Assembly: GCA_964480185.1 (NCBI GenBank)
Contig: CAYZPQ010000001.1
Coordinates: forward strand, 8,240-43,543
From: an uncultured Planctomycetales bacterium
Lineage (GTDB): Bacteria > Omnitrophota > Gorgyraeia > Zapsychrales > Fredricksoniimonadaceae
DNA length: 35,304 bases
Reading direction: 5' to 3'
A model generated the notes under the pieces. That model did no database searches. It saw only the letters and a list, made by a program, of their open reading frames with translations, and was not told the DNA's origin. This document shows, piece after piece, positions 1 to 35,304 of the stretch; within the stretch, counting starts at the first letter, position 1, and each line of letters begins with the position of its first letter. A program made the translations under genes and the position numbers.

Positions 1-3000
1 TCGTCTTCATGCCGTTGAAGTAAGTGGGAATAATGTGAAGGCTATAAACGCCAAAAGGGCTCGTGCACAACGAGCCGCGTTCCGGTCTTACCCGGGACGC
101 TTTTGTAAATCTTTGTAACATTGCATGGGAAACACGCATTCCTAAAGCTTTATGAAAATCTTTGTAGCTATTGATTAAGTCCACCGTCTTGGTTTCAAAA
201 TCTGCAAAAAGCCCATCTAAATCTTGATCAATATCTGCATCTTGTTTTTCAAAAGCACGATAAATCTTTTGAAAAGAACGATGCCACGCTTCATACGCAA
301 AAATAATTGATGAAAAAAATAATGACGTGTCTTCTTCTATTTCTTTAACATGCTCGACTATATGATCTTTCATGGCATTAATCCAATGCTCCATCTCGCG
401 TGCGAATATAAAAAATAGAATGAAGTCTTTGAATATGATGGCTTTATACATTCTCTGATGTTGATTCTTTAGAGAGGTGAATACTTTCTTTAATTCGATG
501 AATCTATGGTTGATAGGATCAAAATTTGTGAACATCTGTACTGAATCTTTTCTAAGTTCAACCAATAAAGCCTGCAAAGATTGCAGCGATTGCTCTATAG
601 TGGTGAGTAGTCCCTCTTCTTGATAATGCTTATTATCATTATAAAAATCTCGCCATTGAGTAAAACCTTTATCTAGTTCACTTATATCTAGCGTCATTCG
701 AGCAATGCCTTCAGCTAAGATCAATTGTCTATTAACATGTTCTAATTGTTTATTGAGATTTTGAGACACATCATTTAATTGAACATTACCTTTAAGTAAT
801 TGATCTAACGTTAATTTAGCTAAAACAGCATCAATTACGCTAATTCCTGTTCTTAGGCCTTGTGTAACTTCTGGCATATCATGCAATGCTTCTATCTTTG
901 GTTCAATTGTACTTTTCCAAGATGCTGTACTTGTTCTTAACTCTTGAATATCTTGCGCGTGCTCAACGATGACCTGAACTTCAGCATGTATGACAACTGA
1001 CCGTTTACGGACAGAATTAATAAATCTATGCGTTGCTTGATTATTCTTTACAGCTGTTTCAATACCTTTATGCAAACGTGCCAATATTTTTCTTTTATCA
1101 TTAACTATACCTGATTCCTCATTGATCTTTGCCAATGCTGCTTTTGAATCTTTGAGATCTTTAACTAATGTTTTAATAGCTGCAGCTAAATTATCGTCGA
1201 GCAAGCAATCTTGCACATAAACCTCAACAGCTTCATTGACAAGACTTTCAACTTTCTCTAATGAGAGATATTCAGGATCTTGATCGTCTTCGGCAATAAC
1301 CACTAAACGCTGTTGTAATGCATTCAATCGGGATAATGCGATTTCCATATAATCAAAACCTAATTCATCCACTATCTGTTGCACGGGCATAATAATAGTA
1401 CGTTCTAATTCTTCAGCCCTTGCTTTAATTTGATCTCCTGATCTTATTCTAAATGTTTCCCAGCGCTCATCTAAGGTTTGCATGGCATCTCGATAGCCCT
1501 TAAATGTGTCATTACCCGCACGCAACACAGATACACGTGCTAATAATGCATTAGCATCCCCTTCTCTTCTTACAACTTGGCCTATCTTAGAGCTTGCTTC
1601 ATTGACATATAATGCCTCGATCCTGCCCCCTAAACTTTTGACTTCTCTCAATAATTTACTGTGTGGCGGTTCCCATTCACTAATGCATTTGACAATAGCT
1701 TTCGCTGTCTTGGCTGCCTCTTCATCTCTTTGCTCAAAGTCACGTACTTCACCTCGATTATATCGACGTGTGGTGATTTCATTCACAGGTATGTTACACT
1801 GCTCTTCCTTAGCTTCAGCTCTTTCTGATTCTCCACTTAACCCTTTAAATCCTTGTGGCCAATACTCATTAAGACGACTATCGGATAATTGACTTTGTAT
1901 CCACTCTGTTCTATCGGCATGGTCCGTTAAATCTTCATCAAATAACACTCCTTCTAAATCTTCGATAAAAGCCATAAAGTCATCTAAAGTAATTGGCGCT
2001 CCATCTGCGACGGACATCACGCTATTTAGAATAATTAATAATGCATAATCATTAATACTTAACGTTAGCGTCTCTCTTTGACTCTCAAAAACTGCTTTGA
2101 TAACAGGGGCCACTGGTCTTTTTTCTATAGGTTCTTCTGCAGGTGCTTGTGGATTATTTGTTACAATTTGGAGCCTTTTAAATCCATCATGCACAACATC
2201 AGTATTGATGATCAACGTTTCAACCGTGTTATATATTTCTTCATCTATCTTTCTCTTGCTGCCTTTTAGAACAGCTTGAGCAGCTCTGTCCGAAGATAAA
2301 AACTTCTTTGTTTCTTCAATAAATAATCGTCTAAACAATTGCTTTAGCTTAGGCATGGTATCTACTACATCTGGCAATTCTTTGTATTGAGCAAAGACTT
2401 CATCTCGATGTTCTGCAAATTCTCCTTCGCCATTTGCCCACTCTAAATGCACACGCCATTCCGATGGAATAATGCCATTACTTGTGCGAAGCGTTTGAGC
2501 CCAGCGTGATAATAATTGTAATGCGCTTAATCGTTGCGCTACTTTATTAGGGCTCGATGTTTCCCAGGCCGTTAGTAAATCATCTAATGTGGCCCGCACC
2601 TCTTGGACATGCCCTAAGACTTCATCATCGGCCGCAACAGGATTTCCTTGAACAAAGGTGGTCCAAATGGTGTATAAGAATTTAATCCCTTGGCGGACAA
2701 TATTAAGTTCATCCTCGGTATTCTGAAGGCTATTCTCATATTCTTGCCACGCCGTTGTCAGAGCTGTTGGATGTGCTGCCCCATTCGTTGGTTTCTTCAA
2801 TTCTTCAGGAATAACAACAGGTATTAGGTGATCCTCAACACGATGTTGATAAAATTCAATCAATCGACGGATACGTGTATGACTCTTCGACATACTTTCA
2901 TGACGTGACGATAATAATCGTGTATCGATGATCACAGCCATGTGATCGCGCGCGCGTGATAAGGCAACGGTAAGCATTTCTGGCTCATCTTCCATGAAGC

Positions 3001-6000
3001 CTAAATCTCCAGCAGCATTACTATGAACCGTATCAACAATAATCGCTTTACGTTCTCCGCCTTGAAAACTTTGTGGCGTTGTAACGAGAATATCATCAGC
3101 TGCTGCACCAAACTCTTGCGCTAATAATGTTTGAAGGAGTTCAATTTGACCTGTATAGAATGTGACAACGGCGATATCTTGAAGTCTGATCCCTTGTGCG
3201 TGCCATTGCTTCATAATAGCGATAGTTTGTGCGGCGCTTACAGGATTAGACCAGGACGATGATCCATCTTGATGTGTTGCAAAATACGCTCCTGAGGCAT
3301 TAATGCTCATGTCATATAATGCCAAGGGCGCTACAGGACTATCAATGGACTCTCGATGAGCTCTGACTTGACCAGCGTAGGATAATTCACTGACTAAATC
3401 AGCAAGCAGAGGAACAGCGCGATAATTTTTTGTCAACATCACCCGTTCACCAAGACCAGAAGCGATCATCAATCTAAAGGTACTGATCATTTCTAAATCA
3501 ATGTCTTCTCTCGATACATTTTCACGACGTAAATAATCAAGATGTTTTCTATTTCTAAATGGTCCCATTTGTTCTAAATCGCCGATGAGGATCAACTTGC
3601 CATTGGCTTTGAGATTTCTTAATAAGGTCAATGCGCCCGGAATCGTTTCGCGACTTGCTTCATCCATAATAATGACATCGACTGATGAGAATATCGGCAA
3701 TTGTTGAGATGCCCAATCTAATGATAACCCTGCATTGGTGACAAAAAATACTGCCCCACGACCTGGAGTACGACGACGGGTAAATATAGCTAAGGCTTCG
3801 TGATTAATTCCTTCTTCTCTATTGCCTAACCAATATTTCTCATACCCATCACCCTTAGGCTTATTACCTAAACGCAACACGGGAATATCTTCACGATCCA
3901 TCAACCTAAATAACACCGTATTCACCGCCTGATGCATTTGAGCACTGACAATAATATCTTTACCCTGCGCAACCAATTGAGCCACAGCTTCCGCTAACAT
4001 TTCTGTTTTACCTGAAGCTGCAGGACCTTCGACGACTAAGAGAGGTTTACCATTAATTGATTTTTCGACCGCAAATAATTGTGAAGAATCATCATTCACT
4101 TTATTTAATAAAGGAACAAGCGGCGTATAAGCACCTTCTCTAACTTCTTCAACTTGATTAAAAAGTCGATCCACAAAAGTTTTTGCGCCTTCGTGAAGAT
4201 CCCGTCCCCATTGACTTAATGCCACCAGGTTAACACGTACAGTTGTGTCGTCGGTAAAACGATCGTTTAATTTAACATGGGTGGCTAATAACCTATCCAC
4301 CATAGACTTAAATTCAGGAAGACCAAACGTCATTCTGCCTGCATGCGACAAGCTGTTTGGCATGGCAATGCCTAATAACGAGGGGATTACGTCTTTCAAC
4401 CCCTTCTTATCAATAGTCATGGGCCTCTTAAATGCATGAGCCCTATTAAATTCCAAATGGATGCGGATAGCATCATTATGGGCTTGTTGTTCTGATTTTC
4501 CTTGTCTGATGCCATCAAGAACCGCATCGCGCATCGCTGTAATAAGGTTGATTAATAATTCTATTTCCTCTGGAGTAATTAGGCGGCGTTTGACTGTTCT
4601 TGTTTCAATATCAATTTCTATGACATATCTATGCCAATCTATAAATACCTGCACCCAATCATGGAGAGGTATGAATCTTAATCGTTGTTGTTCTTCAAGA
4701 GCCTTAGACAAGAGCGTTCTCCCCACTGCCATTCTTAATTGGGAAGGGTCAGGATTTTCTTTAAATATATCGCTAAACAGACGCTCGTTTAGAAGACCAT
4801 TATCTTCGTCATTACAAAAGCCTAAGAATGTAGGTTTTTTACCGACACTTGAATTTCTATCTGTAGTTGATTGACGAAGAATCCCCCGCTTAGATAAAAA
4901 TAGCATCGTGGCAGACAGAATTTTTTGCCAATATGTCATGACAATAGCAATACCCACAAATACGATTGATGTTAGTAAAAGTATCAATGAAATCCACGGG
5001 TACTCATACCACATCTCCGGCGTAGTAATAACGAAAGGTGTTATTACTGATGAAAAGATGAGTAAGAAATCCCTTATCTTGTCTTTCGTAAACGCATCGT
5101 TACGAAAATAGGACAATGCTTTCTTAACCTTGTTGAGTGGAATCAAGGAAAACGATCCTAATGCGAGAGCTGAGGGTAATGGGGATGCTACGGGTTCTAC
5201 TGTTACTTGATGTTGTAAGAAATAAACACTACTCAACAATGCGACAAACGCAGCAACTACAGGAAGTGATTTGGAAATAAATTTAAATAACTTAGGCGGT
5301 GATCTTTCTTTTTGATGTTTAGTGATGGCGAGTTCAATCGCAATTAAATCCCACCACATTCCTGCCCTTGGGGATAAAGCTTTTCTACTTTTGTTAAGGT
5401 CATGGGCATTAGCTGCGAATTTAATCAAATGATCATGCAATTGATTTAAATCATATAAGAAATCTGTGCGGACAGAATTATCCTGTGGATGTTCCCAGTC
5501 AGTGGTCTCTACTCTCCATTCTACCAATAACGAATTAACATAGTGAAGTCTTAACTGAGGCAGGCTTGATTGACTTTCACACATATCAGGATGAGCCATC
5601 CAATCCAAAAATAATGGGGTTGATAATAGCACAGTCACGACATTACGCTGACGATTTTTAGCCCATTTATCATTGGCTAATAATGCTTTACCATGGGTTG
5701 ATGCTCTAAATGTGGCAAACCATTCCTGTAGCGCGAAAAGAAATCCTTCTTCCGTCTTAAAGCGCGCTTCGTCGATACCACCTGGGTGTTGTGTTAAATG
5801 AGCATAATATGAATCACCATACTCACGCATATTTTTGGCTTGCTCTTGAATATCTGAATCATCTTTTTGATCATTATCATCCATTTGATCATGTAAGAAT
5901 GCTGCTGTGGCTTTGGTTCTTTGGAAAGGTGTGAGCATATATAATGAATCGAGATCTACATAATCTCCTCTCGCTCTGCCCCCTTTATAAAGATCATTCG

Positions 6001-9000
6001 TCCCTTTAAGTGAAATAATTTCCAATAATTTAAGACGATAAAGTTCGACATCGCCTCGTTCACGGTAAATTCCAGCTAATGTCAACCACTCATTGAGTGG
6101 TAAAACCCCACCCTTCATTCCAGCATGGGGCATACCTGCTAAAGCCTTGTCAAAATATTCACCGGCGCGTGCAAAATATTGTTCACTCTCAAAAAGTTGA
6201 CCTGCAAATTGATGTTCTTGTCCTTTGAGCTGACACACAGACCCTAACACAAATGCGGTGCGCACATAATCAGTCCATTGATCTTGTATCCTATTTTCAA
6301 TAGATTCGCCTTTCACTTGAATAGGATTGTCGATGCCTAATTTAATGTTTTCTAATTCTGTTGCTAACTCATCCTGCAATCTTCCCCACTGTACTGTAAA
6401 ACGCCCATGCCTTAATGCCCACAGCAATACATCTCGTACACGAGGATCATCTTCAATTTTAAGTCGATCAATAATCGTTCTGATGGCATCTTGATGCCCA
6501 TGTAATGCCAAGGCCATGGCGGCCTGAATACGGCCTTGATAATATTGATCACCACTGTTCCTTGTACTTCCTAACAATGTGGCCAAAATATCATTGGCTT
6601 TCTTTTTCTGTTCTGCCGTCGGATGTTGAGCTTCACCTAATAATTGCGCTGCTGCTAAGCGTGACGTACGTTGTTGATCGCTTAAATCAGTAATAATTTC
6701 TTCAAAATAGGCAACTTCCTCATCCGTAATCCATTTTCCCGATGCTTCTAAAAGCGCTGCTTTACTTAACGCTAAATCGTACTCATATCCTTTATTAATG
6801 AGTTCGATAAAGAAATTATACGTCCTGAGTTCTTCGTCGGTGAATTGAGCTAAATATTTGGGTGTCGATAATCGAACAATCTCGCTCTGTCTAAATTGAG
6901 GGTCGCAACAGGCAATGGCATTAAACATATTTGTTTTCTGGTACATGCGCTGATGAAGATCGGTGAGCTTAAGTGCAAAATTAATATTCGCTTCATCGAC
7001 TTCGCTAAGCCAAACAATAGGATCGATACGGCCTGTTGTTGGATCGGTAGAACGTCTTAAATGCAAATAAATATTCTTCGCAACAAATCCTTTAATGCGA
7101 CCAATCAATGCTTGAATCGAATAACGGTCCATCGGATGACCACCGGGACTTTGTGATTCATACAATACGGCTGTCGCATCACTTTCACCGGGATTTGCTG
7201 TTGAATAACGCGTATATAATCGTCCCTGCTGGGCCAGGAACATTTTTGTCGATTCACGGGCAACTAAAGGACGTTTTTCAATAATAATCCCAGCCTGGGT
7301 CAAATTACCCTGTGCATCTCTGGAAGCATTCACTAAAACCTCTGCCATGCGTTGATTGAAAAAGTTCACAGGGCCGGTTAAATACAACACATCGCATTGG
7401 GCGATTTTAGGACTTGGGTTTTGAGGATCAAAGTCTTCATACTCTATTTCTGGATGACGATCTTTAATATCTTCTAAAACTTCTAAAGCAAATGATGAAT
7501 CACGACGACGAATATTGTCATTAATACGCTGGATAAAAATAGGGGCAATTCCTTTAGGATCTTTCGATGTGACAATAACCCATTTTTGGTCTAAATGTCC
7601 CCATTTTCTTAAGACTAACATGCTAACGACTGAGCTTGCGTTTTCATCATTGTTCATGGCATTGATTAAATGCAAGAAATTATCATCATATCCACCGTGA
7701 ATACCGATACGTAAACCTATCGGTTCATTATTTTTTGGATTAGATCTCACAGCAGATAAGAATTGTTCTTTAGTATCAGGAGTGCGCGAATAAACCCGTG
7801 CTGCTGTCCAGGCACTTAAACCATTAAATTCAGAACCTACAGCAATTGCGGTTACAGGAGTAAACGGTTTTCCTCTTGCCGTTTGTTGACGCGCAACCTT
7901 CTGTGCTTTTGCCTGCATGCGGTCAATGTGCTTTTTCTTCACGCGTGACCCGTTGGTGATAACAATATTGGCCTTAATACCAGACAACATCAAACCTTCA
8001 ATAAAGTCTGCTAAAACCAAGCGTTTAATCGCCCCACGCCCGACAATAAGGCGTGCATAACCACGGTTAAATTCAACCGTATCATTACCCGCATCAGCCA
8101 CTTGGCGTGATGCAGGGATCGTCGGTGGTAAATATTCTTTTGATCGATCGGCATATTTCTTATCTTGAGTTTTATTGAAAACAAATAATCCAGCGCCAGC
8201 GATAATCATCGCTAATCCCGTAAAAAATATCCATTCTGGCCAATGCGTACTAATTGCTGTTTGTAAATCAAGCGCTGTTCCCGTAAAAAGTAACATCAGT
8301 GCAGAGCGATATAACCAATTCGCCGTCTTATCGCCTAATACATCGAGGGTAATATCAACCAAATTAGCTTGTGCTGTGCCATTACCATAGTAACTAAATA
8401 CCCCATAACATTCTTTGATGGGGAAGGTGCTTTGACGTGGCAAGACAAACACAATTTCCTCGGGGGCATACCCTTTATCATAGCCGGCAGGACGATGTTC
8501 TTCATGTAAGAGTGGGATAAGAGATGACTTGAAACGGATAAATAAAGGTAAAGCTCCAGTTAGGCGCGTAAATGATGTTGTTTGAGGATCAGCAATATAA
8601 TCAGCAGTGCCTGGAACTAAATGCTTCTTTAATTCATTCTCAAACCCGCGAATATTATCTTTATTAAGAATTTGGGCAATGCCAGTTAAGGCATCATTTA
8701 ATGACTTGATGTGGGTCTTCGGTGAATTACTGTTGTTGCGTATTAAGTTAAATAGATAAATAATAAATGGGATCATCAAGAGCCCAATTAAACTCATGAT
8801 AAATATGTCTTTAGGCACAATATCCATCGTCGATGAATCATTTCCGTTTGCGGCTGTTTGGGCCATGGCTATGGATGGGAAGATGGCGATTAATCCAATA
8901 ATCCAAGGCATAACATAACGTGCCACTATTCTTTTGAGTTTTTGAGCTATCCCTTGTGTCATAGGAATAAAGGGAATCATCGCTGGTGCAAGATGTGTCG

Positions 9001-26164: not shown

Positions 26165-27330
26165 TCACATCACGCCAACTTTGGCTAATGGATGCTTTAC
26201 ATCAACTAATGAGGCAATCCATGGGAATACTTTTGTTGATGCATGTAAAATTGGCCAATAGAAGAATGCATCGGTCCATGGTATTTTCAAATCTAAAATG
26301 GTGTTTGTAAATGTATCGTTAATCGTCTTACGTAAGTCGTTTGTCACATGTCTTACTTGAATGGCAGTATATAATTCTCGAACAATGTCGCGTGTTTTAT
26401 TGGTGTAATACATTAATCCTTCAAATATCATCAACCCAACAACACCCTGCAAGGCAAAAACCCATGACGATTGTAATGAATAGCCACTATCTAAAATTAA
26501 ATACATTCCTGTAATCCACGTCGCAATCGCAGCAGGAGCGAATAAAATCGCGGTCATTAATAAATATTTTTGCGCATGTGCGTAGATTAGTTCTAATGAC
26601 AACTTGCCTTTATTATTTAAGCTCGCCATCTTCGCATCCATGATCAACTTAAATCCATAAGCACGTACCATGCCTAATACCAAAATACCAAATGTCGTCG
26701 CGATGACTTGGGTTTTTCCGATCATGTAAATCAGAGCTATTTCCGCGCCAATCGCTGATACAGCTAATAATGTTCCACCAATGTAATTATTTCTGATAAT
26801 TGTTTTCGAAACACGCACACGATCAAGAGCATTCACAGCGCTGCGTATGTAACGATGGAAGATGTAAAAACCAACATAGGTTGCCAACGCTAAGATTGAC
26901 GTGGCCACATAGTGAAGACTTAAAGAGCTAATGGGGATGTAACTTAAAACTTTTGTCGTTTGTATTGGGAAAAATACTTGAGCTAATACGATACCAAGGA
27001 ATGTTGGGACAAACATCGGAGCAACTGCATTCGGGAATGTCTTCATGCCCTTTGCATGAATTGTTGCAATCCATTCAAATGCTTTCTCACCTGTGCCTGC
27101 TGGGGGTCTGTTGGCGATCCAGGTGCGGATGACGATGGCGGCGGTGATGAGTGCAACAATAAAAGCGCCGGTTGGGGTTGATAGTGTCGCGAATAAACCT
27201 AACACAGGTGTTTCGTTAACCATTGTTGTACTAGAACCAATGACATCTGCATTAAGCGTGCTGAAATTTGACGTAGCAAGAATCAATCCTGCTAAAAATA
27301 GCATCCAGCGAATGGAGCGGTGCATTTTTA
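25990..27330 (-). repeat. Polytopic membrane module, copy 1. It spans the in-frame TGA.
   Basis: Copy 1 runs MHRSIRWMLFLAGL...ALITAAIVIRTWIANRPPAGTGE...KGMKTFPN...YIPISSLSLH...QKYLLMTAILFA...WVFALQGVVGLMIFEG...NDTFTNTILDLKIPWTDAFFYWPILHA...KVGVM*AITVSFAG...KKGYLNRWFKKRG...NTHAQDPFSF. It is collinear with copy 2 at a roughly estimated 45-50% amino-acid identity. Confidence 0.8.
26165..26167 (-). other. The only in-frame stop codon (TGA) in 11,767 codons. It could be a read-through or recoding site, a nonsense mutation, or a sequence error.
   Basis: The minus-strand context is aaa gtt ggc gtg atg TGA gct att aca gtc. The flanking peptide KVGVM*AITVSFAGMGATVWG aligns with KLGTMLAITATFAGIGALVFG in the paralogous module. 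In that copy the equivalent codon is TTG (Leu) at 23669-23671. Confidence 0.6.
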
Positions 27331-30300
27331 GTAGCAAGGTCTTAATTTGATGATGGTAGACTAAAGCAAGTACCGTTAATCCTACTGCAATTAAACTATG
27401 TGAATAAAAAGCCATAAGGATTGGCAACATAATATGGGCTGAACCACCATCTGGACTCGCTGGTGGATCAACACGGGTTACACTTTGTCTAAACACATCT
27501 TCAACTCTTTTCCCTGGTTGAAACTCGTCTCTGACAGCTGCTGGTCGGAAAATACTCTCATATGGCTTCTTTTTGCTCATGACAAAATCTAAATCTTCTT
27601 CTGCTATTAAATTCGAATCATTAAATTGATGGCCCATTACGCCGGCATTAACAAGTGCGTAATAACGCATATCTTCTTGTATGCCAAAAACATTTTTAGC
27701 TTCATGGAAATACTGATACTCAAAACGATTATTAGCATTATTGAGGAAGTACATCCGGCTCACATCACGGGCAGGATTTTCATCAGGGCCTAATAAATGA
27801 TGCCCGATGATTTCATGACGAAGAATATCATTAAGCAATGCAATAAATCTAACGGAGTCTTTATCCTCCACATTTAATACTGGTGCTCTCATTAATTTCT
27901 TATTAATGACAACAGGCTTCTCTATTCCGGTGAAATCATAATAAGCCACGTCATCGCTATCAAGATATCTGACATCAACAAGTCTCTCAAACTCTCTAAT
28001 TCCTAAATAATCAAGAGAGTCCAAAAGATTCTCTTGTTTTTTTATACCTAGAGAGTATTGAATGTATCGATTAATTTGCTCATCATTAAGCGCTTCATAC
28101 GTCAATCGCTGATTAGATAATAACTTTGCAGGATAATTTGATGCCGCCGCCGCTTCTTCTTCTTTAATACGTTCTTCTTTCATATTGGATGGAACATCCC
28201 AAACAACATCATAATCATTATCACCTGAGGCAATTGGTTTTGGAGATCTCGTTGTATAGACTTTTGTCTTACTTGTTGAATCCCATGGAAAATATTTCCA
28301 AATCAAAGCCAAGAACTTATCAGATCCCTTCGCCTCAATTAAGGATATGCCGGTAAACATCTTCACAAAGAAACGTTGAATAGCGACCATGCGTACTAAG
28401 CCGTCATACATTTTATTATGTAGTTCGCGTGTGTGAGAATTAAAGTTTGTGAAATCAACATCACCTAAATGATGGTGACTATCTGTAGCATTTTTATCAT
28501 TCAATTGACGCTGGCCAAAAGTAAAGACTTCTGCTGAACCCATGAATATCTTCTGGAATCTCCAGAAACCACTTAATACACCCTTGGTTTGTTTCGCTGT
28601 CATTTTAACAGCATCAAACTTAGCATCTTCAATCGGCATACCAAAAATACCTTTGGTACCTCTCACCACACCACTCAAGAAGCGTGCTCCAAAATGATCT
28701 TCGGCATTTCCACCATGGACATGAACTTCTTGGCTGCTATGCGCTGTACCACGTAATTTTCGAACCAATAGCTCAAGAATTTGATGATAAACAGACTCTT
28801 CCCCAATAACAATAGTTGGATTTCCTAAACGCTCCCATAATGGACGTTTTTGAATAAATCGTAATAAAATCGTAAACGCAAATATATTAAATAAATATGC
28901 TGTTGCTTCAATCAAATACGCTTTAAAACCAGGATCCATATGTAAAATGATTCCCGTCACAAGTAACTTATGGAAAAGTAAAGGCGCAATAATAACCCCA
29001 AGAATGACATGCACCACACCCACAACCTTGCCCCACATCACTTCTTTAACACGCCATTCCCACTTTGAAGCATCTTTATCAATAGCTTTCGTCATATCGC
29101 TTTCAATTTGATTTCCATCAGCATCTTTACCAACAATTGTTTCAATCTTAGCTAACGCCTCGTCACGTTTTTCTTTCAATAACTTAAGTTGTATTTCATC
29201 TAGACGCATTCCTAAAGGATTATCTTTTGGAAAGGTATTCTTAACGCCTTCCGCTAAATTAATTGCAATTTCTAATATCTCAAAAATTAATGCGGTTGTA
29301 TCTACTGTGGATGCTTCCGAAAGCCTAATATTTGCTCCTGTGACAAATATTCTGCCCTTAAATCTACTCTTACTGTTAAATCGCTGACCAATAGCCATAC
29401 CCATCATGCTATCAACACGATTTGTAACAACGAAGACTCGGTCACCAAAAAGTTTATAAAGCTTTCCCGTCCCAGATAATGTTGGGAATGTTTGTCCAGA
29501 ATCACTGATTGCAATAAAGATAGTACGTTTTGTCGCACCAAATTTCTTAGGATCAGCGATTAACTTATTTGATGAAATTGCATCAATATTAAGATCCGGA
29601 AAAATATGTTCTAAGACTTCTTTGAGTTTTTCACCTGCCCATTGTGATTTTTCAAAACCTGTAATAATAATGTGTCTTTGTTTAAACTCTGGCAACACAT
29701 TACGTCGCGCGTCTCTACGGAATATAGAACGTAAATGGTGTACCATCCGACTAAAAACTGAAAGGGCTTTCTGAAATGGCATTTTCTCAGATGGAAGTTC
29801 TTGAAATGCCTTTACTTCTTTTTCCCACTGCTCAACTAATCTTCCTTGCGAGTCAACAAATGCTTTCACCATCCATTGAGACAATTCACTCAAATGAGCT
29901 TGAATATCTTTATCAAAATCAGTGATAAGTTCATGCATTTGATCTGGCGTAATGCGTGTTCTTGGATTACGACGGTATAAGCGTGACGCCAGATTCTCTG
30001 CATGCGAGCCAAGTTGATTCGTTAACATCATCTTCACATAATCAACCATAACTGTATTATTTTCCACCGCTCGAATAAAATCTGCTGTTAGCGCACGTCT
30101 CGCATCAGGTTGGAGATCTACGAAAACTCGGTTTGTATAACCAATAAGTTGATTACGAATTAAACCATCTAAAGAACCCCACTTCGTTGAATACTTCCGT
30201 AAATATCGTTCAATTTCAATACCATTAACCATCTTAACTAATTCATTTGTACTAATGGCATTGAATTTACTTTGTTCTAAGTTCTGATTTCTTAATGATG

Positions 30301-33300
30301 GATTTTCTACAGGTAAGAAACTATTTCTTATCCAATGCAATACAGATGCTGTATCTTCAAAATCAACCCATAATAAATTTGCACCGGGGTCATATTCCTG
30401 TAACTTCCTAAAGTATGGATTCTTTTGTTCATCTAATTCCATCTTTCTAGCTTCAATATCTTCAGTTGTGAGTTCGCGATTCAGATTCGCGTTAAACCCA
30501 CGTATTTTTGGACGGCCATCTTTAGTCATCGTAAAGTCAATTACTTCTCCACGACCTTGAATATCCATATCAAGACGATGTGTCAAATACCCACGATCAC
30601 CATATTTCACTTGTAATACAAGCGCTTCGGAAGCAAAGGCAAAGAATTTCTCAACAGTGTTCCATCCTAAGGAAATAGATTGATCTAATGTAAATAACGT
30701 GACCCCGTCATCAGGAATTGACGTACGAATAACAAAACCAAAGCTACCAAAAGATCCTTTTTGGAATTGACGCCCTGCATGATAACGATTATTTAAGAAG
30801 AAGTTGCGTACCACCCCTCCTACAATTTCATTAATCTTTGCTTCGCCACCACCAAATGTTGAAATAATTTTCATAGCTTTGGCATCGCCTTGAAGCTGTT
30901 GCACTAAGTCATTTTGTAATGCTTGTAATGCATCGTACTGTGCTTTTAATTGAGGATGCTTTGCTACTTGTTCTTTCGTCACATACAAATGATTTAATGC
31001 TTTCGATTCCATACGAAGTTTTGGACGACTTACGGCAGCAGCATGTTTAGCAAAAACGCGATCTGAGATTGTCGCTAAATAATTACGGTCATTGATAGGT
31101 AACATGGTGTTCGGCGCATTCTTATCATCTAAGTCTTTGCCACCGGTAAGATCTTCAGGTTTCGATAAGCTCAAGACGAATCCTAATTGCCATGACGCAG
31201 TAAAACGTTGTTGTGTCCAGAATAAACGAGCGATACCAGATGCTGGTGGAGAATCACCTGGAGTGTCATCAGCCCATGGGTAATCCGATGGTTTCTTTAA
31301 TTGCTTAACATACAAGGCTCTTCTTAAGAATGGTCGTAATTCATCTTTGTTATTACCGTTATCAAGTTTACGGCCAAGAATAAAGTAGTCATCAAAATCA
31401 CCGTTATGCGTAATGGCGATAATAAAGTTACCAAACTTTTGAACGAGAATACCCTTTTCATTAAAATCCCAATAAGAAATTCTCTCTTCAATGAATTGCA
31501 CATGTGGATGAGATGCTTTCTTCGTCGCCTTACCAGCTGTTGCAAAACGCACGTGCCCTGACCATATGCCTAATCGTGTGCCTAAGAAATACCCTGATTC
31601 GATTAATTTCTCAATAACGCTTAACCATCTATTTAACGTGATGTTTTCTAAATTTGCGCGTTTTCCCTTAATTTCTTTTAAGAGGACAAGAATTGTTTGC
31701 ATTGATTTATTCATGACAAAATGAACTAAACCAATTGTCTGACCACCCCGAATTGTAATTAAATTGATCTGATTCTTGATCCCCTCTTGAACCCAGTGAG
31801 GTGCAATTTCTTTGGATTCTTCTTCAGTTAAAATACCGCCAATACCAAAGTTTCCGCATTCACTCTTATCGCCAACACCTAAACGTAATATATCCGTCTG
31901 AATAGACCAAATTAATGCAAATACGGAAGCTGCCATCACAATTGGCCAAGGTAAAATCGTTGCTACTGGTGAAGTCATCCAATCATGCTTATAGGCAATC
32001 ACTGCAGCGACTAAGGATATGTTGACCGCTGCCCCTGCTAAACGATTTGTCAATGTGGATTGAACGGTTACAGAAGGACCTTTAGCGTAGTACCCAAGGA
32101 CAGGAATTAAAGCGCCAACGATATGAAGAATATTGAGATTGCCTAATATATTACTTAATGTGAGTGTTCTAAAATTACCTCTTAAGACACTTTCAAGAAT
32201 ATGTCCCCACTCATTAGCAATAAAGAATCCAAATACGGCAGCTCTCCACATGAAGGCATATTCAATAGCCATCTTCACATCGCGCGTTTTCCATAATGTG
32301 AGCGCAATCACAACGATATCTAACAATCTTAAGAGACGATTTGGCGCAGCTTCCTCGACATAATCGCCCTCATCGCCAACCATGACCTTAACGCCATCCG
32401 TATTATCGCTTGGGATAGTTGTTGTATCATCTAGTACCGCTGCATTGGTCTCAACAATGGGCTTGTCATCTGTTGCAGCTGATGAGGCATTCGTTGAAGT
32501 GTCATTTGAGTCGACATTATCTAAGATGGGATTATCGTCCTCAATCATTAAATCATCTTTAGCATCTGCTGATTGTGCTGCCGCAGGCTTCAGCTGTGGT
32601 GGCGGAGGTGTTGTAGTTTTCGTCTTAGGAGTTGTTGGCTTCGCCTTGTCTGCTTTCTTTGTCTTCTTTTCTTTTGGCTTTCTCCAGGCGCGAATAGCTA
32701 ATTTAACTTCTTCGAATATCTCCGTCATATTGCTTGGCACAAAACCACTTAGTTTTTCAGTTATAGCAGACGCATAATTTTTGATGACATAAAATGCAAT
32801 AATAAGTCCTAATAAAGCAAGGATCGCATATCCGATGAAATGCATATAAATATGATTGTATTGAATGTACTTAGGATAGAAATCAAACTTGTGGCCCTTT
32901 CTTAAGTCTCTTACTTCCACCGCTTCCGCAGCAGGATCAATTTCTTTTAATAATGGCAAAATACGTTTAATGATAATATTAAACTCATTTGTACGATCAC
33001 GTTGTTGATTCAACACAATATACTGTTTCAAATCAGGTACAGCATATTGGCCTATCTTACGAAGCGCATAGTGTGCTGCAGCCTGAGCTGGTTCATATTT
33101 GTTATAAGGTGAAAAACGATTGAAGAACATTGGGTCGCGATCTTCACCGCTCACCAACACTTTAATAATCTCAGGAGTAATGACACTGCGTTGATTACGG
33201 CTTGCTGCTAAGTCTCCAGCAAATTTCACCATGGCAATTTCTTGATATGTTTTAGGACCAGAATGAGTACTAAATTCTGCTAATACACCCGCCATGGTCG

Positions 33301-35304
33301 CTTCGGCTTTTCCACTATTGGATCTGGAAATTTGATCTCCTGCTAAAACTTGTAAATCCCCATTATTGAAATTATTTGTGGCGTTTGCTGCCGATGTGTT
33401 TAACGCGATATCTTCATAGAATTGAATTGCCCCATTTGTTCTCACAGGATATTGACCCATAACCCATTGAATACTCATTTGCGCATCAATACCGCCAAAG
33501 ACAGAAGCATCCTTGGCAATATAAGGAGCTAAGGCTTGTTGTGTATTACCTAGGCCAATGATTGCATTTGTTAAAAATGCTTTGTCACCGATTGAAAGTG
33601 CTCTCGCTGATTCATATAATGAATTTGTTGACGGCGCTACACGACTATAATTTTCGCGCAGATCACGATGCTTTTGCACGAAGTCTTCATATAAATAACG
33701 TGTCTCATCTGTCCATCCATGCCATGGTTCATCATAATGAATTTGCCACCAGCGTGGTTGCTCATCAAGCAATAAGCTATCTTGGCTATAAGGTTTGTAT
33801 TCCACAGGTAAACGTTGTGCAAATGTGTGATAAGCGCGCTCATCTACTTCGGCTAAGATCGATGCCAATGGCCAGTTGACGCGCCCCTTGCTATATTGCT
33901 TAGCTAACTCATTTGGGAGAATTATTGTGCTAGCTGCTCTATATTGTTGAGACAACATGACTTCACGCATAGCATCCATTAACTTGAAATATTCACGACG
34001 ATGTTCAATGTTTTCATTCCAATAATTAGCATGGAAAACAGTTTCTGTTTGAGCTAAGCGTAATACATTATCTTTGCGTTGTTCTGGTGTTAATTGTCTC
34101 GTTGGATACTCTAAGACATTCATTAATGCCACTTTATTGTCATTCGAATAGTTATCGTAGACAGTCGCGACATTATCCTTGGTGTAATTTAATTCTTCAA
34201 AGATCGTATTGATCGTTGGATCATTTTTCGGTGCAATATAGAAATCTGGTTGATTAACAACTTTATTAAGTACGACAATTGCATTCGAGGTGGTCACATC
34301 GTCACTCTTTTTCATATCAAGCATGATGCGTCCACCATATGGCGGAATATAATTTAATCTAGCTAATTGCTCAACTGCAGTACTTGTGAGACCATGTTTT
34401 GCTTCTCTTAATAATCCATTCGCTATTGTCGTCGATGTACGAATCGTTTCTACTTCTTCGGCTCTTAAAGCAACCACGCCACTCTCATCATCAATACGGA
34501 TACCTAAGGCATTGGCTGCCAGAGCACGGATAACATCGACTTCATTTAATTTCTTCGGATCAGTCCCAACACTTAACAAGGCTTCACGATGACGTGCCAC
34601 TAAACGTGTTTGAATATCTGCACGACGATCTAATGGGACATTGCGGATGCTTGTAACCACATTGCTAAATGATTGGTTAAATAAATCAAAGCTATCTGGT
34701 GTAAGACCACTATCTCTGAAATAACCTAACATTGGTTCAATGGATAAATTAATAGGACGATTTTGAGCTGCTAAACCAGGCACTGTAGCGACGACAGCAC
34801 GAATATTTGGATTGGCATGGTTGATGTAAGGTTCTAGGCTTCGTAACGCTTCAGGTGTACCGATGTTAATTAATCGTTCTAACAAGCTCTTGGTATGAAT
34901 ATAGTCGGTTGTTTTGGCTAAGCGTGCTTCGATCGCTAAACGGTATTGATCTTGAGCTGGGTTGATCAACATCACTTTGCGACGTTCTTCATGCATTTGA
35001 TTCAACACATCAGCCCAGTCATTGGCCATCTCATCATCAGGTGAATCACGGAATGCTTCTTCAACAATAGGCCAGAACACTAAATCAGGTGTGGTTTTCT
35101 TGAAATACTGAGCCAATCCTCGACGTTGATCTAAGGTAAGTCTGTCATTGGTGACATTGGCTAAGTACATCACGTTCTTAAAATCTTGTGGATTCGTTGA
35201 GAGAATTAGCTTTTGTACCAATCTTAAACGCATTGCTTCTTGTTTTTTGCTTGTGCGTAATGAGGTTTCGATTCTCTTATTTAATAAGTCATCAAAGTCA
35301 GCAG
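26165..35304 (-). CDS. Giant multidomain membrane protein, upstream segment. It is 3022 aa from the first ATG at 35231-35233 and is probably 5'-partial. It ends at the in-frame TGA.
   Basis: The ORF track lists a 3022-aa minus-strand ORF ending in TGA at 26165-26167. The same frame stays open for 23 more codons upstream of the ATG, to the window edge (...ADFDDLLNKRIETSLRTSKKQEA-MRLRL...). I see no clear Shine-Dalgarno sequence before that ATG. The translation carries class-II amidotransferase and SIS motifs, an HExxH motif and several TM clusters. Confidence 0.9.
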   Translation of the reverse strand, partial: ADFDDLLNKRIETSLRTSKKQEAMRLRLVQKLILSTNPQDFKNVMYLANVTNDRLTLDQRRGLAQYFKKTTPDLVFWPIVEEAFRDSPDDEMANDWADVLNQMHEERRKVMLINPAQDQYRLAIEARLAKTTDYIHTKSLLERLINIGTPEALRSLEPYINHANPNIRAVVATVPGLAAQNRPINLSIEPMLGYFRDSGLTPDSFDLFNQSFSNVVTSIRNVPLDRRADIQTRLVARHREALLSVGTDPKKLNEVDVIRALAANALGIRIDDESGVVALRAEEVETIRTSTTIANGLLREAKHGLTSTAVEQLARLNYIPPYGGRIMLDMKKSDDVTTSNAIVVLNKVVNQPDFYIAPKNDPTINTIFEELNYTKDNVATVYDNYSNDNKVALMNVLEYPTRQLTPEQRKDNVLRLAQTETVFHANYWNENIEHRREYFKLMDAMREVMLSQQYRAASTIILPNELAKQYSKGRVNWPLASILAEVDERAYHTFAQRLPVEYKPYSQDSLLLDEQPRWWQIHYDEPWHGWTDETRYLYEDFVQKHRDLRENYSRVAPSTNSLYESARALSIGDKAFLTNAIIGLGNTQQALAPYIAKDASVFGGIDAQMSIQWVMGQYPVRTNGAIQFYEDIALNTSAANATNNFNNGDLQVLAGDQISRSNSGKAEATMAGVLAEFSTHSGPKTYQEIAMVKFAGDLAASRNQRSVITPEIIKVLVSGEDRDPMFFNRFSPYNKYEPAQAAAHYALRKIGQYAVPDLKQYIVLNQQRDRTNEFNIIIKRILPLLKEIDPAAEAVEVRDLRKGHKFDFYPKYIQYNHIYMHFIGYAILALLGLIIAFYVIKNYASAITEKLSGFVPSNMTEIFEEVKLAIRAWRKPKEKKTKKADKAKPTTPKTKTTTPPPPQLKPAAAQSADAKDDLMIEDDNPILDNVDSNDTSTNASSAATDDKPIVETNAAVLDDTTTIPSDNTDGVKVMVGDEGDYVEEAAPNRLLRLLDIVVIALTLWKTRDVKMAIEYAFMWRAAVFGFFIANEWGHILESVLRGNFRTLTLSNILGNLNILHIVGALIPVLGYYAKGPSVTVQSTLTNRLAGAAVNISLVAAVIAYKHDWMTSPVATILPWPIVMAASVFALIWSIQTDILRLGVGDKSECGNFGIGGILTEEESKEIAPHWVQEGIKNQINLITIRGGQTIGLVHFVMNKSMQTILVLLKEIKGKRANLENITLNRWLSVIEKLIESGYFLGTRLGIWSGHVRFATAGKATKKASHPHVQFIEERISYWDFNEKGILVQKFGNFIIAITHNGDFDDYFILGRKLDNGNNKDELRPFLRRALYVKQLKKPSDYPWADDTPGDSPPASGIARLFWTQQRFTASWQLGFVLSLSKPEDLTGGKDLDDKNAPNTMLPINDRNYLATISDRVFAKHAAAVSRPKLRMESKALNHLYVTKEQVAKHPQLKAQYDALQALQNDLVQQLQGDAKAMKIISTFGGGEAKINEIVGGVVRNFFLNNRYHAGRQFQKGSFGSFGFVIRTSIPDDGVTLFTLDQSISLGWNTVEKFFAFASEALVLQVKYGDRGYLTHRLDMDIQGRGEVIDFTMTKDGRPKIRGFNANLNRELTTEDIEARKMELDEQKNPYFRKLQEYDPGANLLWVDFEDTASVLHWIRNSFLPVENPSLRNQNLEQSKFNAISTNELVKMVNGIEIERYLRKYSTKWGSLDGLIRNQLIGYTNRVFVDLQPDARRALTADFIRAVENNTVMVDYVKMMLTNQLGSHAENLASRLYRRNPRTRITPDQMHELITDFDKDIQAHLSELSQWMVKAFVDSQGRLVEQWEKEVKAFQELPSEKMPFQKALSVFSRMVHHLRSIFRRDARRNVLPEFKQRHIIITGFEKSQWAGEKLKEVLEHIFPDLNIDAISSNKLIADPKKFGATKRTIFIAISDSGQTFPTLSGTGKLYKLFGDRVFVVTNRVDSMMGMAIGQRFNSKSRFKGRIFVTGANIRLSEASTVDTTALIFEILEIAINLAEGVKNTFPKDNPLGMRLDEIQLKLLKEKRDEALAKIETIVGKDADGNQIESDMTKAIDKDASKWEWRVKEVMWGKVVGVVHVILGVIIAPLLFHKLLVTGIILHMDPGFKAYLIEATAYLFNIFAFTILLRFIQKRPLWERLGNPTIVIGEESVYHQILELLVRKLRGTAHSSQEVHVHGGNAEDHFGARFLSGVVRGTKGIFGMPIEDAKFDAVKMTAKQTKGVLSGFWRFQKIFMGSAEVFTFGQRQLNDKNATDSHHHLGDVDFTNFNSHTRELHNKMYDGLVRMVAIQRFFVKMFTGISLIEAKGSDKFLALIWKYFPWDSTSKTKVYTTRSPKPIASGDNDYDVVWDVPSNMKEERIKEEEAAAASNYPAKLLSNQRLTYEALNDEQINRYIQYSLGIKKQENLLDSLDYLGIREFERLVDVRYLDSDDVAYYDFTGIEKPVVINKKLMRAPVLNVEDKDSVRFIALLNDILRHEIIGHHLLGPDENPARDVSRMYFLNNANNRFEYQYFHEAKNVFGIQEDMRYYALVNAGVMGHQFNDSNLIAEEDLDFVMSKKKPYESIFRPAAVRDEFQPGKRVEDVFRQSVTRVDPPASPDGGSAHIMLPILMAFYSHSLIAVGLTVLALVYHHQIKTLLLKMHRSIRWMLFLAGLILATSNFSTLNADVIGSSTTMVNETPVLGLFATLSTPTGAFIVALITAAIVIRTWIANRPPAGTGEKAFEWIATIHAKGMKTFPNAVAPMFVPTFLGIVLAQVFFPIQTTKVLSYIPISSLSLHYVATSILALATYVGFYIFHRYIRSAVNALDRVRVSKTIIRNNYIGGTLLAVSAIGAEIALIYMIGKTQVIATTFGILVLGMVRAYGFKLIMDAKMASLNNKGKLSLELIYAHAQKYLLMTAILFAPAAIATWITGMYLILDSGYSLQSSWVFALQGVVGLMIFEGLMYYTNKTRDIVRELYTAIQVRHVTNDLRKTINDTFTNTILDLKIPWTDAFFYWPILHASTKVFPWIASLVDVKHPLAKVGVM
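27800..27817 (-). other. HExxH motif (HEIIGH), a possible zinc-metallopeptidase-like site
   Basis: The translation LNDILRHEIIGHHLLGPDENP covers residues 2473-2478 of the 3022-aa ORF. Only a short motif supports this, and I do not recognise the surrounding family. Confidence 0.3.
29330..29700 (-). other. SIS (sugar isomerase / sugar-phosphate binding) domain, GlmS-like
   Basis: The translation reads IIITGFEKSQWAGEKLKEVL...TIFIAISDSGQTFPTLSG. Compare the GlmS SIS motifs ACGTSxxAG and AISQSGETADTL. Confidence 0.6.
30500..31858 (-). other. Class-II (Ntn-type) glutamine amidotransferase domain, GlmS/PurF-like, with insertions
   Basis: Motifs appear in canonical order. First is SE-CGNFGIGG, with the Cys codon at 31856-31858 (residue 1126 of the 3022-aa ORF). 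Next is GIWSGHVRFATAGKATKKASHPH, compare GlmS GIAHTRWATHG...NAHPH. Then come ITHNGDFDDY (HNG motif), DDTPGDS...IARLF, GSFGFVIRT and FAFASEALVL. The motifs spread over about 450 codons, which is more than a typical domain of this class. Confidence 0.7.
31895..32345 (-). other. Cluster of predicted transmembrane helices
   Basis: Consecutive hydrophobic stretches include LLRLLDIVVIALTLW, AAVFGFFIANEWGHIL, ILHIVGALIPVLGYY, AAVNISLVAAVIAY and ILPWPIVMAASVFALIW. The cluster ends 15-20 residues before the amidotransferase Cys. Confidence 0.5.
32560..32690 (-). other. Lys/Thr/Pro-rich low-complexity linker
   Basis: The translation reads KPKEKKTKKADKAKPTTPKTKTTTPPPPQLKPAAAQSADAKDD. It follows a single TM helix (YMHFIGYAILALLGLIIAFYVI, about 32775-32850). 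Confidence 0.6.

Follow-up and report, generated by a model that had tools for sequence, protein, structure and literature searches.

Giant open reading frames (ORFs) that exceed 20 kb are reported to be common in Omnitrophota, where they encode many predicted transmembrane (TM) helices but a small number of annotated domains, and show little conservation (PMC10066038). One example, a protein of 39,678 amino acids with 42 TM helices in Velamenicoccus archaeovorus, has proteomic support (PMC10066038). The "archaeovorins" (West-Roberts et al., 10.1101/2023.11.21.568195) contain numerous TM regions; HEAT is the domain that they carry most often, and sugar-phosphate enzymes, among them phosphoglucomutase/phosphomannomutase (PGM/PMM) and glucose-phosphate isomerase, are scattered along them. 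The cleavage points of these proteins are unknown according to the authors. The catalogue of Nielsen and Lui (2026; 10.64898/2026.06.07.730766) comprises 916 such giant proteins; TM helices or a signal peptide are present in 94% of them, and 15% lack any Pfam match. It also describes a "multi-enzyme metabolic cluster" class in which HAD, kinase, and HIT content is combined with HEAT scaffolding, and 80% of 5,761 clustered proteins of at least 10,000 amino acids (in-house and NCBI) were sequence singletons (10.64898/2026.06.07.730766). The present analysis concerns a stretch of 35,304 nucleotides from contig CAYZPQ010000001.1 (hereafter the window, meaning the whole stretch of DNA that was analysed), and the giant-gene locus that occupies it on the minus strand.

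With a probability of roughly three in four, the window comes from the interior of a giant-gene locus that encodes a non-repetitive, membrane-threaded multi-enzyme protein and the ancestral frame of which is now split by a TGA codon. The likeness to the Omnitrophota giants lies in a single non-repetitive frame of more than 20 kb (at least about 7,000 residues), in dozens of TM helices distributed along the chain, and in HEAT repeats together with scattered divergent HAD, kinase, HIT, and sugar-phosphate (PGM/PMM, isomerase/SIS-type) domains, without a dominating repeat, few of them annotated and with poor conservation. The sugar-metabolism modules of the Omnitrophota giants are echoed by the sugar-phosphate and nucleotide domains of the window. 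On the other hand, no SecA_DEAD, C39/S8 peptidase, glycosyltransferase, or dockerin domain was present in this slice of the gene, although SecA_DEAD and/or C39/S8 occur in most full-length members, and the window carries a superfamily 1 (SF1) helicase of the Upf1/IGHMBP2 type instead. Its TM density is also higher (approximately one segment per 200-260 residues, compared with a reported one per 370-950 residues), its frame is broken by a TGA, and it has no detectable homology to catalogued proteins. Members of the giant class are grouped by architecture and do not form a homologous family; on the features that could be compared, the window fits this class of TM-rich multi-domain ORFs, save for SecA_DEAD and C39.

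The first-pass annotation, which was made from the letters of the sequence, had stated that this architecture matches no characterised family. A published counterpart nevertheless exists in the giant TM-rich ORFs of Omnitrophota (PMC10066038; 10.1101/2023.11.21.568195; 10.64898/2026.06.07.730766). Its further statement, that the product differs from the repetitive adhesin and megasynthase giants, was borne out: the only tandem repeat in the window is a trivial one of 35 bp (18-bp unit, 1.9 copies) at 5858-5892, inside the coding frame, and self-comparison of the 11,767-residue translation returned one internal protein duplication only. Repetitive adhesins, RTX proteins, and nonribosomal peptide or polyketide synthases therefore resemble the locus in size only, whereas the window has many TM clusters and lacks tandem repeats as well as adhesin, RTX, condensation, ketosynthase, and acyltransferase domains. 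A giant of either type was ruled out because no such domains were found in the Pfam scans and no tandem repeats of that kind are present.

The coding frame and its in-frame TGA

When read on the minus strand, with codons at forward positions 2-4, 5-7, and so on, the window consists of 11,767 codons that contain one stop, the TGA at 26165-26167. The remaining five frames hold 520-1,165 stops each, and the longest stretch free of stops among them spans 144 codons. Approximately 787 stops were expected in the minus-strand frame from base composition (log10 P for at most one stop of about -351). The GC content at the first, second, and third codon positions was about 50, 37, and 32%, respectively, and was uniform across all 500-codon blocks. 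The whole window is genuine protein-coding sequence in one frame, because the stop count is far under expectation and the codon-position GC is stable. Non-coding sequence or a chance ORF is ruled out by the 787 stops expected against the one observed, and several conventional genes with their own stops are likewise ruled out, the TGA being the only stop in the frame. No RNA genes or tRNAs were found in the window. These results agree with the first-pass annotation, which had described the entire window as protein-like on the minus strand with a single stop, had placed an ORF of 3,022 residues in this phase, and had the frame leaving the window at position 1; the recount of codons and stops gave the same values, the ORF was recovered at the same place, and the codons below the TGA are open down to position 2.

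The TGA divides the frame into two ORFs (Table 1). ORF A is the only ORF of at least 150 residues that was listed for the window, and the only complete one. Its product is identical to P0014, an entry of the 50%-representative protein library that is recorded as coming from one NCBI contig of 57,898 bp, and the public gene call likewise starts it at the ATG at 35233 and ends it at the TGA, which is therefore present in the deposited sequence too. A Pfam scan of full-length ORF A returned no family at E ≤ 0.01. The 23 open codons above its ATG have a chance probability of about 0.2 at 0.067 stops per codon and are therefore uninformative on a longer gene upstream; the earlier observation that the frame stays open to the window edge is correct, but it gives no evidence that the frame goes on above 35304. 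ORF B alone, with its 26 kb, is a giant gene. Its first possible start is the ATG at 26138-26140, eight codons past the TGA and the sole start codon within the first 80 codons, and no Shine-Dalgarno-like sequence was seen upstream of it. The products of ORF B from four candidate starts, ending at window position 1, had no exact match in the protein collection, and ORF B was not found in the protein library by exact look-up or by a profile search with the membrane module described below.

Table 1. Features of the window. Positions are those of the forward strand of the window, and residues are numbered along the minus-strand translation.
Feature	Position	Strand	Residues	Evidence and remarks
ORF A	26165-35233	-		3,022 codons plus TGA, ATG start; frame open for 23 further codons, to 35302
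ORF B	2-26164	-		at least 8,721 open codons (26.2 kb); exits window at position 1
Single in-frame stop TGA	26165-26167	-	3046	within predicted TM helix of membrane-module copy 1
Membrane module, copy 1	25991-27319	-	2662-3104	about 10 hydrophobic helices; broken by TGA
Membrane module, copy 2	23495-24817	-	3496-3936	unbroken
Class-II (N-terminal nucleophile, Ntn) glutamine-amidotransferase-like region	31313-31858	-	begins at Cys1149 (31856-31858)	NCBIfam GlmS models
SIS (sugar-isomerase)-like region	29399-29680	-		NCBIfam PRK00331, model positions 286-375; Pfam SIS E 0.02, below cut-off
HAD-IIB (Cof/phosphomannomutase-type) phosphatase domain	22625-23350	-	3985-4226	Pfam Hydrolase_3 E 1.5e-8, 35.1 bits (cut-off 20.9)
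APH-like (aminoglycoside/choline-kinase fold) phosphotransferase region	19832-20473	-		Pfam APH E 6.5e-4, 20.0 bits (cut-off 23.2)
DHH phosphoesterase-like region	17786-18187	-		Pfam DHH E 8.8e-5, 23.2 bits (cut-off 28.1)
Fic/XopAC-like region	16130-16522	-		PDB 3cuc Fic-domain protein E 0.0011; NCBIfam XopAC E 0.0014
DUF4922 (HIT-like) region, weak	10625-10861	-		Pfam DUF4922 E 0.0048, 17.3 bits (cut-off 23.6)
HEAT repeats	6410-6685	-		Pfam HEAT_2 E 9.4e-8, 32.7 bits (cut-off 27.7)
SF1 helicase, IGHMBP2/Upf1/DNA2 type	2843-4090	-	about 10405-10820	Pfam AAA_12 E 2.4e-29, AAA_11 E 9e-13
Signal-peptide-like segment, internal	26006-26086	-		RWFKKRGLFAIFLAFGLFTLAPNTHA followed by Q; pattern search only
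Same signal-peptide-like pattern, five more	25043-25117; 23510-23590; 15875-15976; 9329-9412; 8858-8932	-		

The single internal duplication consists of two copies of a membrane module, which share 49% identity over 445 residues (E 2e-138), copy 2 lying 830 residues downstream of copy 1. The TGA falls in copy 1 and is aligned with a Leu (TTG) of copy 2 (KVGVM-stop-AITVSFAGMGA in copy 1 and KLGTMLAITATFAGIGA in copy 2). It is one nucleotide away from TTA, the commonest Leu codon of the gene (584 of 1,159). The 58 residues past the TGA are 57% identical to copy 2, compared with 49% before it. Furthermore, a distant relative, P0015 (1,606 residues), aligns through the TGA position in a match that spans residues 2758-3060. 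Because both copy 2 and P0015 read through this position, ORFs A and B appear to be the halves of an ancestrally continuous frame, and by these alignments the TGA interrupts that frame rather than marking an ordinary end of a gene. The claim of one gene longer than 35 kb is therefore upheld as far as continuous coding and common ancestry of the halves are concerned, but not for the locus as sequenced and publicly called, which has two ORFs. The 26 kb below the TGA have stayed free of any further stop, which leaves three possibilities: the TGA arose very recently, it reflects a base-calling error or a difference between strains, or ORF B has a translation of its own. The frame would have been split by this one codon, which differs from a Leu codon at one base, into ORF A (3,022 residues) and ORF B (over 8,700 residues). 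If ORF B is translated independently, re-initiation could occur at the ATG eight codons past the TGA, and the product from there would start with a signal-peptide-like segment, KKRGLFAIFLAFGLFTLAPNTHA followed by QD.

That same segment bears on the alternative that survives best, in which two conventional giant genes evolved separately and lie as operon neighbours, the TGA is an old and genuine boundary, and ORF B starts at the ATG at 26140 with a signal peptide of its own. This arrangement is considered unlikely. It agrees with the public gene call, which ends ORF A at the TGA (P0014), and with the position of the ATG directly before a good signal-peptide-like segment, and the intact state of all 8,721 downstream codons implies that ORF B must be translated somehow. 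However, the boundary would then cut through a TM helix, midway along it, in a module that runs on unbroken in copy 2 and in P0015; the identity to copy 2 is no lower past the stop than before it, and in copy 2 the corresponding "signal peptide" lies inside the chain. The lack of a Shine-Dalgarno-like motif, the shared frame of the two ORFs, and the gap of just eight codons between stop and ATG also speak against two separate genes.

TGA is the leakiest stop codon in many bacteria, and the homology runs on through the stop, so that decoding of the TGA (by genetic code 4 or 25, as selenocysteine, or by programmed readthrough) into one polypeptide of more than 11,767 residues was also considered. 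This is very improbable. The 11,767 codons include 159 TGG and one TGA, which excludes general reassignment, and the aligned residue is Leu rather than Cys, Trp, or Gly. The RNA downstream of the TGA does not form a stable hairpin (z = -0.8, no better than shuffles), and neither a hairpin resembling a selenocysteine insertion sequence (SECIS) nor an Rfam SECIS family was found at the TGA. Recoding by code 4/25 or selenocysteine was rejected on these grounds. Finally, it is scarcely credible that a chimeric or mis-assembled metagenomic contig created the giant ORF by accident: the source is apparently a single 57.9-kb NCBI contig, and giant ORFs in metagenome-assembled genomes are sensitive to assembly quality (10.1101/2023.11.21.568195), but a stop-free frame of 26 kb cannot arise by chance in a chimera (log10 P of about -351 for the whole frame), the codon statistics are uniform, and there are no repeats to promote mis-joins.

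Membrane segments, domains, and relatives

Hydrophobic, TM-like segments were called by Kyte-Doolittle hydropathy with a 19-residue window, and numbered 52 at a threshold of 1.6 and 59 at a threshold of 1.4. At the lower threshold they form 17 groups, of which seven are single segments and the largest contains 16 segments (residues 3377-4023); the soluble stretches between groups measure 200-1,500 residues. Approximately seven enzyme-like regions were detectable in the translation, two of which (HAD-IIB and SF1 helicase) exceed curated thresholds. All domain matches together cover about 13% of the residues, and about 87% have no match in Pfam, NCBIfam, or PDB sequences. The first-pass annotation had proposed TM clusters that alternate with at least ten different enzyme-like domains. 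The alternation of mostly clustered hydrophobic segments with soluble regions is supported by the hydropathy groups, and the domain matches bear out the presence of different enzymes between these clusters; the number ten is an overcount. The scan with Pfam and other hidden Markov models (HMMs) that it had suggested placed HAD-IIB, SF1 helicase, and HEAT above cut-off, and the rest were below threshold or without a match.

The HAD-IIB domain was also matched by TIGR00099 and TIGR01484, and its closest solved structure is an alpha-phosphoglucomutase (PDB 4bnd, E 1.4e-6). Its motifs DKDNT and GDEFYGND are intact and correspond to the DxDxT and GDxxxD motifs of HAD-IIB (Cof-type) hydrolases. The SF1 helicase matched TIGR00376 (E 1.6e-38) and the PDB entry of SMUBP-2 (E 5.8e-20); intact Walker A (GPAASGKT) and Walker B (IIMDEAS) motifs, together with the above-threshold AAA_11 and AAA_12 matches, place it with the IGHMBP2/Upf1-like helicases. 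Its best database relatives share 26-37% identity and are themselves 600-730 residues long, so none of them is a giant protein. Weaker HEAT-like matches were located at approximately residues 128-172 and 6729-6761. The APH-like region contains a catalytic-loop motif, HGDFMLEN, at residue 5133. The DHH-like region was matched by the NCBIfam model of Mn-dependent pyrophosphatase (E 1.9e-4) and contains the motifs GHKKPDMD and DHH. The active-site motif of the Fic-like region is degenerate (QPFEFARGQQAR; 16187-16222, minus strand; residues 6361-6372), Gln standing where the catalytic His would be expected, and this region is probably a catalytically dead Fic fold.

Two further observations concern the soluble parts of the chain. 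An HExxH motif (LLHELHHTDQG; 13595-13609, minus strand; residues 7232-7236) lies in an unannotated soluble region without HMM support, and could be a zinc-metalloprotease site that is relevant to processing. A low-complexity linker at approximately 32588-32725 (minus strand; residues about 860-905, continuing to about 980) directly follows a single TM helix (residues 822-840) and is first rich in Lys, Pro, and Thr and then in Asp, Thr, and Ser (beginning KPKEKKTKKADKAKPTTPKTKTTTPPPPQLKP).

Relatives of the duplicated membrane module are few. In a search of 1.84 billion representative proteins with a profile of both copies, no more than eight weak relatives came up besides ORF A: the larger proteins P0015 (E 4e-10) and P0021, together with six membrane proteins whose length is about 290 residues. 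Five of these six are matched by Pfam DUF2269 (PF10027), and three exceed its cut-off. The same family matched module copy 1 with E 0.0014 (19.1 bits, below the 28-bit cut-off) and did not match copy 2, so that the relationship of the module to DUF2269 is visible only via intermediates. The module is distantly homologous to P0015, P0021, and the six shorter membrane proteins; compared with DUF2269, a family of predicted integral membrane proteins, it is about three times longer, and it is embedded twice within the giant frame. An AlphaFold2 model of copy 2 from a shallow alignment is an all-helical bundle (predicted local distance difference test, pLDDT, 67; predicted template modelling score 0.63), and a Foldseek comparison of this model with the PDB gave nothing below E 0.2, and hence no fold match. 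P0015 is encoded between truA and rplM-rpsI-asd, at 2104-6924 of a 9.3-kb JGI metagenome contig (L001) with a GC content of 43%, which is an ordinary bacterial context. P0015 and P0021 share an N-terminal domain of about 350 residues (44% identity, E 2e-89) without a Pfam match.

Other searches for relatives of the locus were negative. A megablast search of 25 kb of the window against plasmids and phages gave no match, and no relative of the last 1,500 residues was found in GTDB representative genomes, JGI metagenomes, or IMG/VR (close-relative patterns). The module profile had no match in genome contigs, and matched the P0015 contig only among metagenome contigs. A word-indexed protein search found nothing with a query of 1,200 residues or with the module profile; with queries that are long or hydrophobic its candidate list fills up, at 8,000 entries, and its profile run missed ORF A itself, which makes it a weak negative. 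An exact-product look-up of contigs encoding ORF A likewise returned no record, even though P0014 is in the library, and is a weak negative too. The exhaustive HMM profile search of the 1.84 billion representatives is the meaningful negative. Codon usage and the effector-like domains give a faint hint of a Legionella-like or Chlamydia-like origin, which is not claimed here.

Several of these results weigh against the interpretation of the window as a slice of a giant membrane-threaded multi-enzyme gene. No sequence relative was found among catalogued giant proteins by profile, word-based, or contig searches. SecA_DEAD and C39/S8 peptidase had no Pfam match at E ≤ 1 in the soluble segments or at E ≤ 0.01 in the full-length translation. 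The TM helices are hydropathy calls only, and the majority of the enzyme assignments are below curated thresholds. Neither the real start nor the real end of the locus lies inside the window, and no marker gene was found within it. The TGA is known from the deposited sequence only. However, the absence of SecA_DEAD and C39 applies to this slice of the gene and is thus not decisive, and missing homologues are no argument against membership in the class, since the class is architectural and consists mostly of singletons.

Candidate processing sites and the meaning of the locus

Two regions of ORF A resemble the two halves of GlmS. The NCBIfam GlmS models matched the amidotransferase-like region with E-values of 7e-7 and 9e-6 (28 bits against a cut-off of 381 bits), and no Pfam match to a class-II amidotransferase family (GATase) was obtained. 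The motifs CGNFGIGG, IRGG, GHVRFATAG, SHPHV, and THNG are found in the order in which GlmS has them. The motif FIAISDSGQT lies near the SIS-like region (residues about 1927-1936), and this region also gave a colinear blastp match (E 0.001) to a GlmS sequence. ORF A shares with GlmS the motif order, partial HMM matches to both halves, and the Cys-Gly, R, N-G, and S-x-S-G-x-T motifs, but it has about 450 extra residues between the halves, and its Cys is internal (position 1149) rather than N-terminal. A phmmer search of the amidotransferase-like and SIS-like pieces against the PDB returned nothing meaningful, and an alignment-free AlphaFold2 run on residues 1132-2092 (pLDDT 35) gave no usable model.

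Cys1149 is the sole cysteine in the 3,045 residues of the ORF A frame (context DKSE/CGNFGIGGIL, the slash preceding the Cys), and the full translation of 11,767 residues contains 27 Cys (0.23%). The nucleophile of class-II amidotransferases is a Cys at the N-terminus, which some of them, such as PurF and GltB, expose by removal of a propeptide. Because the candidate nucleophile Cys1149 is internal, the domain would be active only after cleavage between E1148 and C1149, a site that directly follows a TM cluster (residues 985-1131). Six internal segments of the frame (Table 1) also resemble signal peptides, with a basic n-region, a hydrophobic core, and AxA before Q or D. Several of them open with RW...K/R, and two are the homologous ends of module copies 1 and 2. 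The residues that come right behind AxA are Q3099, Q3420, Q3931, Q6476, D8658, and Q8815. These segments are pattern-level evidence, without predictor scores or controls. Taken together, such motifs suggest that the giant frame might be a polyprotein that is cut by autoproteolysis between E1148 and C1149 and by signal peptidase I at the six AxA sites, although this is regarded as rather improbable. Cuts by signal peptidase I could release successive enzyme modules or re-anchor them on alternating sides of the membrane.

Under the favoured interpretation of the window, as a slice of a giant multi-enzyme gene split by a TGA, groups of TM helices would alternate with long soluble regions along a chain that is threaded through the inner membrane. 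The recognisable soluble parts would be the GlmS-like region with SIS, HAD-IIB, APH-like, DHH, HIT-like, dead Fic, HEAT, and the Upf1-like SF1 helicase, and most regions would be dark. Such a polytopic inner-membrane protein, or set of proteins, would keep its soluble parts, divergent enzymes as well as HEAT scaffolds, close to the membrane. The helicase and kinase, which depend on ATP or nucleotides, and the amidotransferase should face the cytoplasm, whereas the segments after signal-peptide-like helices may be exported. The product is accordingly pictured as a membrane-anchored enzyme array, several members of which would be related to sugar phosphates or nucleotides, and which may be cut after translation. 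The GlmS-like, phosphomutase-type HAD, APH, HIT-like, and DHH/pyrophosphatase-like domains are predicted to act on sugar phosphates or nucleotides. Their combination as one nucleotide-sugar pathway would be coherent, but it comes mainly from sub-threshold matches and is only a lead.

Bacterial giant ORFs of tens of kilobases are recognised but functionally unexplained, with respect to whether one chain is made, how it is inserted into the membrane, and whether and where it is cut. The present locus is a real feature that is not categorically new, and apart from the points below it bears out what has been published without altering it. It is an orphan example that offers three testable handles, namely a stop that splits a module, an internal Ntn-type domain with the only cysteine of ORF A, which would have to become N-terminal for the domain to work, and internal signal-peptide-like segments. 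The duplication indicates that a conserved membrane module related to DUF2269 can act as a repeated building block in giant proteins, and the in-frame stop within this duplicated module constitutes a natural "split" experiment. If the proposed cleavages are real, the giant-protein class would for the first time have concrete processing sites that can be tested, and a tolerated TGA split would show that synthesis of the chain as a single piece is not required.

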